A stretch of 20,908 nt of DNA. It comes from Candidatus Nanohalobium sp. Lineage in GTDB: Archaea > Nanohalarchaeota > Nanosalinia > Nanosalinales > Nanosalinaceae. The stretch is taken from the NCBI GenBank assembly GCA_042216335.1, contig JBDGTY010000012.1:1-20908 (forward strand), written 5' to 3'. Below the pieces are notes generated by a model. That model searched no databases and had not been told where the DNA came from. It worked only from the letters and a program-made list of their open reading frames with translations. Shown here in pieces: positions 5,837 through 8,128 of this stretch; within the stretch, counting starts at the first letter, position 1, and every line of letters starts with the position of its first letter. The translations under genes and the position numbers were made by a program.

Positions 5837-6586
5837 TTGAGGATAGAAAACAGCTTCATAATGGCCCCAGGAATCGGAGAGAAAACCGAGAAAAAACTCT
5901 GGAAACAGGGCTACACGCACTGGGAAGACGTGGAAGACGGCAACCCCAGCGTCAGAAACAGGGAAAAAGTCGAAAACTTCATAGAAAAGGCCAGGAAAAA
6001 CCTGGAAGTCGGAAACGAAAAATTCTTCGGCACTAAGCTACCGAATAAAAGTTTGTGGCGAAGCTACCGGAACTTCGAGGACTCTGTCTGCTTCTTCGAC
6101 ATAGAAACCACCGGACTCGACAAGGACAGGAACAAGGTCACCACCATCGCGATCCATAGAGGCGGAGAAACCAAGACGTTCGTCAGAGGAGAAAACCTGA
6201 CTAGGGAGAACCTTCAGGAGGAGCTGTTCAACTCCTCGCTGCTCGTATCGTTCAACGGGAAGCGTTTCGACCATCCCTTCCTGGAACACAACTTCGACCT
6301 GGACATCGACAACCCGCACATCGACCTGATGTACATGTTCAAAAGACTGGGCTACTCCGGCGGATTGAAGAAGATCGAGAAAGACCTCGGAGTTGAAAGA
6401 GAGCTGGAGGATCTGGACGGAAGAGAGGCAGTCAAGCTATGGAAGAAGTACGAGAAAACAGGGAACCGTGAACACCTCGACAAGCTACTGAAGTACAACA
6501 GGTACGACACCGAGAACCTGAAAGAGCTGCTTGAGATAGCGCATGAAAGGCTGAGAGCAGAAGTTTTCGAGCCACATCTGGATTGA
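5837..6586 (+). CDS. YprB-like RNase H-fold (DEDD) exonuclease with N-terminal HhH-like segment
   Basis: 'PGIGEKTEKKLW', 'FFDIETTGL', 'SFNGKRFD', 'HIDL', 'GGLKKIE', 'YNRYD'. Confidence 0.88.
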   Translation: MRIENSFIMAPGIGEKTEKKLWKQGYTHWEDVEDGNPSVRNREKVENFIEKARKNLEVGNEKFFGTKLPNKSLWRSYRNFEDSVCFFDIETTGLDKDRNKVTTIAIHRGGETKTFVRGENLTRENLQEELFNSSLLVSFNGKRFDHPFLEHNFDLDIDNPHIDLMYMFKRLGYSGGLKKIEKDLGVERELEDLDGREAVKLWKKYEKTGNREHLDKLLKYNRYDTENLKELLEIAHERLRAEVFEPHLD

Positions 6587-6590
6587 GCGG

Positions 6591-6602
6591 AAAGTTTTTA
6601 AG
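6591..6602 (+). promoter_or_regulatory. Putative BRE/TATA box for the downstream RNA
   Basis: AAAG-TTTTTAAG directly after the exonuclease stop, about 25 nt upstream of the predicted RNA 5' end near 6621. Confidence 0.55.
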
Positions 6603-6620
6603 TGTAGTTCGTCAATACTG

Positions 6621-7135
6621 GCCTGAAGGAAAATGGCCTTGGTGCATGATACTGACTTCACTGGAAACATGTGGATGGCTCCGGTGAACTGCACCTATAA
6701 ACACAGGGCCAGGGCCAAATTCTCCACTATTAACTATCTGGCAGAGTAAAGCGGGATGAAGCCTTGACCTGTAGACCAGGTTAGTGGCTGACCGTGAAAA
6801 TACAAAACTTCTGGTGTGAAGCCACAGTTTCTCTGCCTCTGCAAGACACAGACAGAGTTCGTAGCTCTGTTATCGGAGGACTGTTCGGCTTCCGGGAGCA
6901 GGCTTTGCTTGAAGAGGTGAAGCCTGTTCCACGGAAATATTCTAACTCACAAAATTCAAACACAGTTTGAAAGACTTGGAAACAGGGTGAAACCTAATCA
7001 TGGATGCTAACACGCGACACTTCGAAGCCGAGTTGGAAGCACAGCACGAAGAACCGGTACAGGAAGCACGTGAGATTCACGCGGAAGCAGAAGTCGTCCC
7101 GGCAACAGCTCTTTAGATCAGCGCCGATTCCAGGC
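6621..7135 (+). ncRNA. Unassigned large structured RNA (~515 nt) with a kink-turn and an embedded short ORF
   Basis: Helices 6641-46/6690-95, 6657-65/6680-88, 6740-46/6831-37, 6851-57/6865-71, a 21-bp hairpin 6890-6936 with several G-U pairs, and 6955-61/6965-71; K-turn at 6751-63/6786-95; terminal GCCUG (6621-25)/CAGGC (7131-35). Confidence 0.7.
7000..7116 (+). CDS. 38-aa acidic peptide MDANTRHFEAELEAQHEEPVQEAREIHAEAEVVPATAL (absent from the ORF track)
   Basis: GGTGA RBS at ~6986-6990, ATG 7000, TAG 7114-16; Glu-rich like the host proteome. Confidence 0.6.
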   Translation: MDANTRHFEAELEAQHEEPVQEAREIHAEAEVVPATAL

Positions 7136-7161
7136 AAATAATAGTATGCTCCGGAGCAATT

Positions 7162-7644
7162 CTAGTTGTCCTGGAACGCTGCTGACTCAAAAGCTGCCCA
7201 GCCGTTGGCCATAGAGTCAAGTATCGATGTGAATGATCGAGCGGGTTTTATAACTTTTCTGCGGCCTTTAGAGCCTTCTCTCTCGCCGCGGTACTCCAGG
7301 TACTCGTACTTGATGACGCCCAGACGCCTCAGTTTGGGCAAAATGTTGTTCTTCAGGTTGGATTTTCCCTTTTCGTGGCCCCATTCATCGAAACTGTTCA
7401 GCTTCTCTGAATCTATCTCACCCTCGTCTTTCAGTTCTCTGAGGAATATCTTGGCGTACTTGTTCCTCTTTGGGCTCTGCTCCTCCGGGAAGAACAGGTC
7501 GACCATCTTCTCCCAGTTCCAGGCCCTGTCGCTCTTCCTGAACTTTTGCTCATCGAGAGGCAATGCCATGGAGTGTTTGGTGACGATGGTAGAGGTCTTC
7601 CGTGCGGTTTCGTCGACGAAAGGGTGTTCTTCGTCTTCTGTCAT
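7162..7644 (-). CDS. Hypothetical protein, possibly winged-helix
   Basis: 160-aa ORF with host-like composition; 'NNILPKLRRLGVIKYE' resembles a recognition helix plus wing. Confidence 0.7.
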   Translation of the reverse strand: MTEDEEHPFVDETARKTSTIVTKHSMALPLDEQKFRKSDRAWNWEKMVDLFFPEEQSPKRNKYAKIFLRELKDEGEIDSEKLNSFDEWGHEKGKSNLKNNILPKLRRLGVIKYEYLEYRGEREGSKGRRKVIKPARSFTSILDSMANGWAAFESAAFQDN

Positions 7645-7717
7645 ACCTTCTTTATTGTGTCTCCCGGTTTTTGAATCGACCGGTGAGTGTAAAAACCATC
7701 GAACCTATTTCCTGTGT

Positions 7718-8128
7718 ATGAGTAAAGGTGTGACTCCTGTTGTTGCCACGGTGCTTCTGATCTTCATCACTATCGGTGCGGCCGGGACGCTGTACACGAT
7801 GGTCGAGCAGAACATAGACCAGGGGAAGAAAGCGGCTCAGGATATCTCCCTGAAGGTCAGTGAGCTCAGAGTGGAGTCATGCTACCACAGATCAGGCAGA
7901 ACCAACATGGTCATAAGGAACGGCGGGGACAAGGCGATCAACGCATCAAAGATGAACCTTCTCCTGAACGGCAGCCTGGTTCCGAAATCCGAGTACAGCG
8001 TGGAGAACCCTATAGTCAACCAGGGCAACACCTTCACAGTCAACATGACAAAGTTCGGCAGGAAGACCAGTATAGAGCTGACAAACGGTCGGAACTCGCT
8101 TGAGCACGTCTGCATCTCCCTGGACTAG
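7718..8128 (+). CDS. Archaeal type IV pilin/archaellin-like protein
   Basis: Class III signal peptide MSK-G|VTPVVATVLLIFITIGAAG; real start is ATG 7718, not 7166. Confidence 0.88.
   Translation: MSKGVTPVVATVLLIFITIGAAGTLYTMVEQNIDQGKKAAQDISLKVSELRVESCYHRSGRTNMVIRNGGDKAINASKMNLLLNGSLVPKSEYSVENPIVNQGNTFTVNMTKFGRKTSIELTNGRNSLEHVCISLD

Follow-up and report, generated by a model that had tools for sequence, protein, structure and literature searches.

A conserved structured RNA of one nanohaloarchaeal family with two small reading frames and a likely antisense contact to the rpo7 leader

The locus

The window analysed here is a stretch of 20,908 nucleotides from Candidatus Nanohalobium sp. (contig JBDGTY010000012.1, positions 1 to 20,908 of the forward strand), whose genome comprises 1.02 Mb on 74 contigs, and the element in question is a gap between genes at positions 6587-7161. 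The gap is flanked by an open reading frame (ORF) for a YprB-like protein on the + strand (5837-6586; RNase_H_2 domain, E 4.8e-43; the yprB of an earlier, sequence-only reading of this DNA) and by a convergent ORF of 160 residues on the - strand (7162-7644). That reading had proposed for the gap a highly structured, non-coding RNA of about 515 nt. The gap is real, but positions 6633-6749 and 7000-7116 are conserved small reading frames (sORF-A and sORF-B), which, together with a kink-turn (K-turn) hairpin and an antisense match to the leader of the RNA polymerase gene rpo7, had not been part of that reading. The following features are considered below, the structured elements being numbered P1 to P5.

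6588 to 6601, + strand: transcription factor B recognition element (BRE)-like CGGAAAG and TATA box TTTTTAA, conserved in an alignment of 30 loci
6633 to 6749, + strand: sORF-A, 38 codons plus stop, starting in P1 and stopping 1 nt before the canonical (C) stem of the K-turn
6634 to 6641 with 6704 to 6711, + strand: helix P1, sequestering the UG of the sORF-A start codon and the next two codons
6657 to 6688, + strand: hairpin P2 inside sORF-A (6657-6665/6680-6688 and 6668-6670/6675-6677)
6751 to 6795, + strand: hairpin P3, a K-turn by its sequence, with C-stem 6751-6754/6792-6795 and bulge GAU at 6755-6757
6758 to 6759 with 6790 to 6791, + strand: tandem G.A/A.G core of the P3 K-turn, with the non-canonical (NC) stem and loop at 6761-6788
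6824 to 6847, + strand: candidate antisense element P4, ACAGUUUCUCUGCCUCUGCAAGAC, the complement of positions -24 to -1 of the rpo7 leader (contig C19 of the same genome, G000, positions 1371-1394)
6895 to 6930, + strand: 16-bp hairpin P5, with the tip UGCUU/AGGUG and the loop GAAG (GCA in most homologues)
6932 to 6946, + strand: conserved CGGAA(C) and T/A-rich motif directly after P5
6984 to 6990, + strand: Shine-Dalgarno-like AGGGUGA, 9 nt before the start of sORF-B
7000 to 7116, + strand: sORF-B, 38 codons plus stop, encoding an acidic small protein, MDANTRHFEAELEAQ...VVPATAL

A new family of structured RNA

The + strand of region 6587-7000 folds at -145.6 kcal/mol as compared to -117.4 +/- 5.3 kcal/mol in 100 dinucleotide shuffles (z = -5.31), none of which folds as well, whereas the - strand reaches a z of only -2.96, in line with the earlier proposal of a structured RNA on the + strand. 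Averaging base-pair probabilities over 30 homologues that were folded singly (E-INS-i alignment, per-sequence partition functions) yields four consensus helices, P1, P2, P3 and P5. In these 30 sequences, P1 is paired in 96.2% of the alignment cells, with three of its eight pairs changed on both sides, and in the most divergent homologue (L070) a helix of 9 bp with a different sequence can be made out by eye. P2 is paired in 91-94% of cells, seven of the nine pairs of its main stem are changed on both sides, and its mean pairing probability over the 30 independent folds is 0.4-0.8. Jointly, P1 to P3 are paired in 93.5% of cells, with double-sided changes in 22 of 35 pairs and none of 500 shuffles as good, as compared to 26-48% of cells when the partners are slid by one to three columns; the underlying alignment was fitted to a covariance model and these values therefore lean towards the structure. 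For this reason, the test of P5 made use of a plain MAFFT alignment, which is independent of structure and comprises 32 of the 44 sequences, chosen by their loop motif with at most one mismatch. Here, 96.7% of cells are paired and 11 of 15 pairs are changed on both sides, which none of 500 shuffles reaches, while the wobble-rich tip is nearly invariant (G.U in 32/32, C-G in 31/32 and U.G in 30/32 sequences).

Of the helices of the sequence-only reading, the inner one, UUCACUGGA/UCCGGUGAA, corresponds to P2, and the 21-bp hairpin at 6890-6936 includes P5, with P2 and P5 being backed by covariation. In turn, its helix GGUGCA/UGCACC is paired in just 44.9% of cells in 45 homologues, the junction closure GGCAGAG (6740)/CUCUGCC (6831) is found by eye in some genera only, with CUCUGCC lying inside the antisense element, and GACAGAG/CUCUGUU falls into a region that cannot be aligned between genera. 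The supposed closing pair GCCUG (6621)/CAGGC (7131) would join a variable 5' flank to sequence past sORF-B, and by eye no conservation of it was seen; the columns of the pseudoknot GUGGA (6671-75)/UCCAC (6723-27) fall into unaligned inserts.

The TATA-like box of that reading has held up, since a regular expression detects such a motif in 44 of 45 loci, at a distance of 33-44 nt upstream of the aligned AUG, and in the remaining locus TTTTAAG can be made out by eye. The distance from TATA box to transcription start is roughly fixed in archaea, which would place the start of the RNA at about 6620-6627. As to the other end, the CCGGAAC that follows P5, with its TTTTA/TATAA-like sequence, resembles the RNA's own BRE/TATA and also a U-rich 3' end. 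This motif at 6932-6946 could act as a U tract of terminator type or as the internal BRE/TATA of sORF-B, or in both ways, and may be the boundary between the structured RNA and sORF-B.

When 60 related genomes were searched at the DNA level, 32 of the 36 that belong to the same family had matches, which form two blocks, at about 6624-6771 and 6986-7121. A covariance model (R1) of 182 positions, built from 23 sequences and spanning 6621-6799, has exactly one match per genome in the own genome and in 43 of 49 other genomes of the family, the six genomes without a match being 72-89% complete. In the other families of the order it matched one of ten genomes (f3), 0 of 1 (f2), 0 of 8 (f4) and 0 of 1 (f5). 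The lone f3 match (L023, G051:C114) lies on a contig of 2.5 kb and is flanked by proteins that a quick tree places within the main family; it is likely an artefact of binning or classification and not evidence of a second family with the RNA. The RNA is therefore confined to one nanohaloarchaeal family.

Rfam 15 has no match at the gathering score on the whole window or on ten homologous loci, and on 6400-7400 at E values up to 10 there is a single chance match (E = 9), in agreement with the earlier reading, which had noted no clean signature of RNase P, SRP, group I/II or rRNA; a scan of the window for transfer RNA (tRNA) and transfer-messenger RNA found none. Elsewhere in the genome there are candidates for the RNase P RNA (RF00373; G000:C48:1305-1644, 34.2 bits, E 1.5e-8, gathering cut-off 84) and for the RNA of the signal recognition particle (SRP) (RF01857; G000:C38:13072-13347, 84.7 bits, E 7.4e-20, gathering cut-off 96.5), both of which align over the full Rfam models. 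It follows that the element in the gap is neither of the two. As a side aspect, current Rfam models give poor coverage of housekeeping RNAs in this lineage. That the gap holds a real, conserved and structured RNA locus is, in our judgement, next to certain, and the new class of large structured RNA suggested by the earlier reading is supported to the extent of a new family, absent from Rfam and backed by covariation.

Complementarity of P4 to the rpo7 leader

In a DNA search of the own genome, the only other matches of the query both fall on positions 6824-6848. One of them, at C19:1371-1395, is directly upstream of a gene on the - strand (792-1370) whose product has SHS2_Rpb7-N and S1 domains and which is therefore rpo7 (rpoE'), coding for a stalk subunit of RNA polymerase. 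P4 and the 24-nt rpo7 leader form 22 Watson-Crick and two G.U pairs. Judged from a TTTAAAA box at -52 to -46, the rpo7 mRNA would start at the beginning of the segment complementary to P4, and this predicted leader takes in the ribosome-binding region.

The upstream regions of rpo7 were collected from 41 genomes of the family, 40 of which provided both sequences, and pairing was scored by local and by ungapped complementarity, as RNA.duplexfold on long windows could not discriminate. An ungapped complement of 18-33 nt to the own leader is present in 21 of the 40 genomes, representing eight genera (g1, g2, g4, g7, g14, g19, g20 and g21); in G002 the complement is 12 nt only, owing to an indel. 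Scores for the own leader range from 35 to 54 (24 in G002), as compared to means of 18-27 for the leaders of other genera. Within an 18-nt core, 371 of 378 cells (98.1%) pair, 350 of them as Watson-Crick and 21 as G.U pairs, the rest being one A.C and six other combinations, and seven columns switch between C-G and U-A or between G-C and A-U. When leaders were deranged between genera, the mean was 83.9% and the maximum 88.1%, and 0 of 1000 derangements reached the observed value. The ratio of 21 G.U to one A.C favours pairing between two RNAs in the strand sense given here over a DNA site shared by the two loci. The following variable parts change in step between the RNA and the leader.

g1: RNA element CUGCAAGAC, rpo7 leader GUCUUGCAG
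g7: RNA element CUAUGGGAC, rpo7 leader GUCCCAUAG
g21: RNA element CUGCGGAAC, rpo7 leader GUUCCGCAG
g2 (one species): RNA element CUAUGAAAC, rpo7 leader GUUUCAUAG

In genome-wide BLAST searches with the central domain of the RNA in two complete genomes, the site upstream of rpo7 is the best non-self match, with 18/18 nt abutting the start codon in one genome and 21/21 nt at -77 to -57 in the other, and in the own genome it is among the two best non-self matches. The other matches of P4, on contig C17 of the own genome and at about 650 kb in G021, lie inside unrelated coding genes and are dissimilar to each other; since the element is CU-rich and the coding strands are purine-rich, they are taken to be due to chance.

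In the RNA's own predicted fold, the 5' half of P4 is in a stem and its 3' half has a mean unpaired probability of 0.5-0.84, which is the usual layout of an antisense contact made loop first. Moreover, the RNA of G022 has a further block of complementarity, to that part of the long rpo7 leader which binds the ribosome. An extended, conserved and covarying complement to an unlinked mRNA, as would be asked of an antisense RNA, is thus found in 21 of the 40 genomes and not in the other 19, and in the lineages with a long-type P4 a functional pairing with the rpo7 leader is, on these sequence comparisons, a likely interpretation.

Several observations weigh against this interpretation or narrow it. 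The 19 genomes of about ten genera that have a short P4 with the loop CCUGCCAUCUCUACACCGU also have a shorter rpo7 leader, and there no complement rises above background: duplex energies have z values of -1.7 to +1.5, by eye only discontinuous pairing of 6+3+4 bp can be found, and genome-wide BLAST with the central domain in two short-type genomes gave matches of 14-18 nt at chance level only. As the RNA is fully conserved in these genomes, pairing with rpo7 can not be its sole function and is maybe not its ancestral one. The observed pairing of the 18-nt core is also somewhat inflated, because the P4 site of each genome was taken as the best complement within 205 nt (its position is constant, at 201-227 nt from the model start and at 261 in one genome with an insertion), and the genomes are related, so that cells are not independent events. 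Furthermore, the target sites of g19, g14 and g4 are 46-87 nt away from the start codon, on its upstream side, and off the ribosome-binding site, so that simple masking of the latter can not be universal; what the long types share is that P4 pairs with the 5' end predicted for the rpo7 leader. A quick two-protein tree with weak deep branches does not settle between a single and a repeated origin of the long-type P4.

By eye, the 5'-terminal GAGGUAGAAGA of the long rpo7 leaders of G021, G033 and G066 (L132, L126 and L129) recurs beside the start codon as GGAGGUAGUG, and an intervening UUUUCUACC is able to pair with either copy. This arrangement looks like a cis switch that binding of P4 to the 5' copy could flip.

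The K-turn hairpin P3

Hairpin P3 has the layout GCGG / GAU / GA-A-GCC ... GGC-U-GA / CCGU, i.e. a C-stem, a 3-nt bulge, tandem sheared G.A/A.G pairs and an NC-stem. In the 30 sequences, the 4-bp C-stem is paired in 100% of cells with two of four pairs changed on both sides, one NC pair is C-G in 24 and U-A in six, and all eight apical pairs are changed on both sides. GAUGA and GA-CC, in turn, are invariant or nearly so, with at least 90% conservation of GAUGA and GA, and position 3b.3n is variable, being A.C in most homologues. The assignment was made by eye against the description of K-turns in PMC6298567, where stem-loops that bind L7Ae are described in the same terms, and as far as such a sequence-level test goes, P3 is in all likelihood a K-turn. 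According to the rules taken from that paper, a K-turn in which 3b is not C, 3n is not G and -1b:-1n is not C:G is unlikely to fold without protein, and the fit of the 3b/3n and -1b:-1n profile to these rules suggests that folding of P3 depends on protein in most homologues. The gene for L7Ae is encoded in the same genome (PF01248, 93.4 bits), and P3 is probably a binding site for this protein.

Two small reading frames

The frame of sORF-A, initiated by ATG, reaches the same aligned stop in all 44 loci, a count that leaves out the very divergent L070, which also has a frame, ending at a UGA inside the K-turn. The other two frames are open in 2 and in 0 of the 44 loci. Between the aligned AUG column and the stop there are ten length classes of 99-126 nt, all multiples of three; where the aligned ATG is missing, an in-frame ATG is present one or two codons upstream, and the stop codon varies between TAA, TAG and TGA. 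In contrast to this preservation of the frame, entropy by codon position is flat (0.80/0.93/0.98), the median ratio of non-synonymous (pN) to synonymous (pS) differences is 0.75, and pS is low (0.44 as compared to 0.70 in sORF-B). Since P1 and P2 lie inside it, sORF-A appears to be constrained as an RNA, with the frame being kept and the peptide not. While the peptide is near neutral, we are confident that the frame as such is under selection. If the promoter is read correctly, sORF-A is on the transcript that carries P4, as it lies between the two. The conserved end of sORF-A, CUGGCAGAG, was also considered as an internal decoy for P4; judged by eye, this holds in some genera and fails in many, with one compensatory case inside genus g1, and the idea was dropped.

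The second frame shows a different picture. sORF-B is present in 43 of 44 loci, the one missing being interrupted by a contig end, and a profile search found it in 45 of 49 genomes of the family. Its entropy by codon position (0.90/0.60/1.45) is by far highest at the third position, mean pS is 0.70 as compared to a pN of 0.29, and invariant residues occur whose codons are saturated at the third position, as well as leucine codons that switch between CTT and TTG. In the homologous loci AGGUG or a near variant precedes the start codon by 6-11 nt. A profile search of 1.84 billion proteins returned only 40 representatives, and in nearly all of these the match ends at most one residue from the C terminus. 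No Pfam or NCBIfam family and no usable match in the ESM Atlas was found, and the AlphaFold model (mean predicted local distance difference test (pLDDT) score 70.5), with one N-terminal helix, is uninformative on function. That sORF-B is a genuine small gene can be held with very high confidence. Its co-transcription with P4 would depend on the nature of the motif at 6932-6946, so that sORF-B is a candidate for, and not an established part of, the same transcript.

With respect to initiation, sORF-B starts with ATG in 27 of 43 loci, while 16 loci, with the same Shine-Dalgarno site in front, have ATC, ATA or ATT at this position of the alignment; in L069 an ATT is found one codon upstream. In most of the loci without ATG, an in-frame GTG is supplied by the AGGTG motif three codons before this position. 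This does not apply to L022 and L068, where GTG is out of frame, which suggests a non-canonical AUU start.

Proposed function and rival explanations

The reading favoured here, to which we give moderate confidence in its full form, is that of a dual-function riboregulator, probably bound by L7Ae, that acts on the stalk subunit of RNA polymerase. A single-copy RNA of about 0.3-0.5 kb, structured and at the same time partly coding, would be transcribed from its own BRE/TATA promoter, starting a few nucleotides before the AUG at 6633 and carrying, from 5' to 3', sORF-A with P1 and P2, the K-turn P3, an A-rich linker, P4, P5, the Shine-Dalgarno sequence and sORF-B. The apical loop and 5' arm of P4 would be antisense to the entire predicted 24-nt leader of rpo7, such that pairing might begin between the exposed loop and the 5' end of the rpo7 mRNA and then spread over the leader, either masking the ribosome-binding site or altering the stability of the mRNA's 5' end. 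By either route, synthesis of the stalk subunit would come under control. The folding, stability or availability of the RNA would probably be set by L7Ae bound to the K-turn and by ribosomes that translate sORF-A as far as this hairpin. The direction in which rpo7 is regulated, the ends of the transcript, the binding of L7Ae and the presence of sORF-B on the same transcript are those parts of the mechanism that we infer. It speaks against the mechanism in this form that the transcript, its ends and its strand are deduced solely from promoter motifs and the strand sense of the covariation, that the binding of L7Ae to P3 is likewise deduced from sequence alone, and that, with sORF-A lacking constraint at the level of amino acids, the retention of its frame has no explanation.

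An extension of this mechanism, which is speculative and which we consider improbable as it stands, is a riboregulator gated by translation and loaded with L7Ae, through which the composition of RNA polymerase would be tied to the state of the translation machinery. Ribosomes would open P1, read sORF-A and meet the K-turn with L7Ae at the stop codon, and their collision would remodel the downstream fold and leave the P4 loop free or not for the 5' end of the rpo7 mRNA. The pool of free L7Ae, being both a ribosomal protein and a component of ribonucleoprotein particles, would report on ribosome assembly and set the threshold. Such gating would explain why the frame of sORF-A, its start in P1 and its stop by the K-turn are kept in 44 of 44 loci while the peptide drifts.

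It could be argued that the RNA is nothing but the mRNA of sORF-B, with a long cis-acting leader of upstream frame, K-turn operator and hairpins controlling its translation; the rpo7 mRNA, as a gauge of polymerase production, would then open or close this leader, or the match would be without regulatory consequence. The very long structured leader considered by the sequence-only reading is partly right, in so far as the structure precedes sORF-B and its Shine-Dalgarno sequence. On this account, it makes sense that sORF-B is the sole part with selection at the protein level and has a conserved Shine-Dalgarno sequence, that sORF-A stays open while its peptide drifts, as is the case in regulatory upstream frames, and that the tip of P5 holds, paired to UGCUU, an AAGGUG copy of the sORF-B Shine-Dalgarno sequence; also, archaeal K-turn leaders controlling translation via L7Ae are known (PMC5539422, PMC6298567). 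However, the K-turn is about 200 nt away from the ribosome-binding site of sORF-B, the CGGAAC and T/A-rich motif after P5 could end the RNA or begin a separate transcript for sORF-B, and control in cis has no need of a covarying complement of at least 18 nt to the leader of another gene. Altogether, this explanation appears rather unlikely.

Archaeal repressors often bind between TATA box and start codon, which is where the rpo7 site lies, and the shared 18-24 bp might be a DNA operator bound at both loci by one protein, the two copies of the site changing together as the specificity of this protein drifts. A candidate is the 160-residue neighbour, which is restricted to the family, very conserved (72-93% identity) and has weak winged-helix matches (best E 2.2e-3). 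DNA identity, however, predicts G.U and A.C equally, as opposed to the 21 and one observed; the site is not palindromic, it is placed in the loop and arm of an RNA hairpin, the other helices of that RNA showing covariation on this strand as well, and the second RNA block of G022, complementary to the ribosome-binding part of the leader, does not fit an operator, so that only a slim chance is left for it. Equally slim is the chance of a purely non-coding RNA with both frames untranslated and open just through conservation of the RNA. The lack of three-base periodicity in sORF-A, its pS of 0.44 versus 0.70, its pN/pS of 0.75 and the burial of its start codon in P1 would agree with this, but ten lengths divisible by three, a frame open in all 44 loci where the others are open in two and none, and the in-frame replacement of lost ATGs would not, and neither would the invariant residues, saturated third positions and CTT/TTG switches of sORF-B. 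A very divergent housekeeping RNA, be it RNase P, SRP or a modification guide RNA, had been offered as one possibility by the sequence-only reading. The RNAs of archaeal RNase P, box C/D and H/ACA particles contain K-turns, as does the RNA described here, and as the genome's own housekeeping RNAs score below the Rfam cut-offs, divergence is plausible in principle. Yet candidates for RNase P and SRP RNA with full-length model alignments are located elsewhere (C48 and C38), no Rfam match beyond chance exists even at E values up to 10, the element is confined to one family and, one contig excepted, absent from the four others of the order, and no C'/D' boxes or guide architecture were seen; the probability of this explanation is close to negligible.

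Relation to known RNAs

The locus consists of parts of known kinds, the combination of which is not described in the open-access literature searched (supplementary files excluded). Like sRNA162 of Methanosarcina mazei (PMC3510493), the nanohaloarchaeal RNA would have its own gene and promoter and an unlinked target, being complementary to the 5' region of an mRNA. It differs in that it is much longer, with five covarying elements, a K-turn and two frames, that its target is a core subunit of RNA polymerase, and that the pairing rests on covariation across genera and is known here from sequence. With dual-function RNAs (PMC12612679, PMC12310071; AzuCR, PMC8915982; spRNAs of M. mazei, bioRxiv 10.1101/2025.10.28.685009) it would have in common that base pairing and a conserved capacity to code for proteins of fewer than 50 residues are joined in one locus. 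In contrast to these, there are two frames here, one of which is seemingly selected for being read and not for its product, coding and structured parts overlap in that P1 and P2 are inside sORF-A, and the RNA belongs to a DPANN archaeon whose genome measures about 1 Mb. With the K-turn leaders of mRNAs bound by L7Ae (PMC5539422, PMC6298567), P3 shares a G:C instead of a C:G pair at -1b:-1n, but its K-turn lies neither by a ribosome-binding site nor in the leader of the l7ae gene itself, and instead begins 1 nt after the stop codon of sORF-A. Because of this position, P3 would meet terminating and not initiating ribosomes.

Box C/D small RNAs (sRNAs) have C and D boxes, internal C'/D' boxes and a guide of 10-12 nt to ribosomal RNA (rRNA) or tRNA. 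Of these, GGGAUGA agrees with the C box consensus at six of seven positions, and the CUGA of the window, which is CCGA in most homologues, fits a D box. Here, however, the boxes are separated by a short hairpin only and the rest of the RNA has no C/D counterpart; by eye, neither a second pair of boxes nor a guide was seen, no search for guide targets in rRNA having been made. H/ACA sRNAs, in turn, are defined by a pseudouridylation pocket within a hairpin whose upper stem contains a K-turn, and by an ACA box that follows the stem on its 3' side. The hairpin of P3 is followed by GAA(U/A)AC.CAAA, which includes ACA in some homologues only, and its 4-bp C-stem has no obvious pocket.

Regulatory RNAs are almost unexplored in DPANN archaea, and the open-access literature searched contained no relevant paper on sRNAs or non-coding RNAs in Nanohaloarchaeota and none that describes an action of an sRNA on Rpo7. 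If the favoured reading is true, a genome of about 1 Mb devotes half a kilobase, kept nearly family-wide, to an RNA that targets the mRNA of the stalk subunit, and the transcription machinery itself would be under post-transcriptional control. The locus would also provide a natural case of a K-turn that follows immediately on a stop codon, a frame that selection keeps readable for the sake of translation and not for its product, a new RNA family with a ready covariance model and an RNA-RNA pair that can be tested in vitro without cultivation, and two new families of small proteins, i.e. sORF-B and the neighbouring 160-residue orphan. Should the gating by translation apply as well, one RNA in a minimal, symbiont-sized archaeal genome would carry a feedback loop between translation and transcription.

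Neighbouring genes

The gene order around the RNA is conserved: of 45 loci, 44 have the YprB-like gene upstream in the same orientation, and 44 have the convergent 160-residue ORF downstream. This ORF is an orphan: all 59 of its database matches are nanohaloarchaeal, 69-100% identical and labelled as hypothetical, and it has no match to a Pfam family and no sequence match in the PDB. Between genera it is 75-93% identical, as compared to 60-90% for the YprB-like neighbour. Its structural model (pLDDT 64, medium confidence) has weak winged-helix matches to PadR/LmrR, MarR and TFIIE-like chains, with a best E value of 2.2e-3. The stop codon of this ORF is 45 nt from that of sORF-B, and the two transcripts may overlap. 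On the opposite strand, the ORF overlaps with a long + strand ORF of 320 codons (7166-8128), AT skew and conservation favouring the - strand ORF up to 7644. As the archaeal pilin N-terminal domain of the + frame begins only at about residue 187 (approximately position 7724), the 5' part of that frame is probably not coding.

The YprB-like gene has full-length relatives in two haloarchaeal records from Halorussus (L080 and L081), the proteins of which are 55-58% identical to it, its bacterial relatives being more distant at 24-35% identity. This similarity may reflect gene exchange between nanohaloarchaea and haloarchaea.

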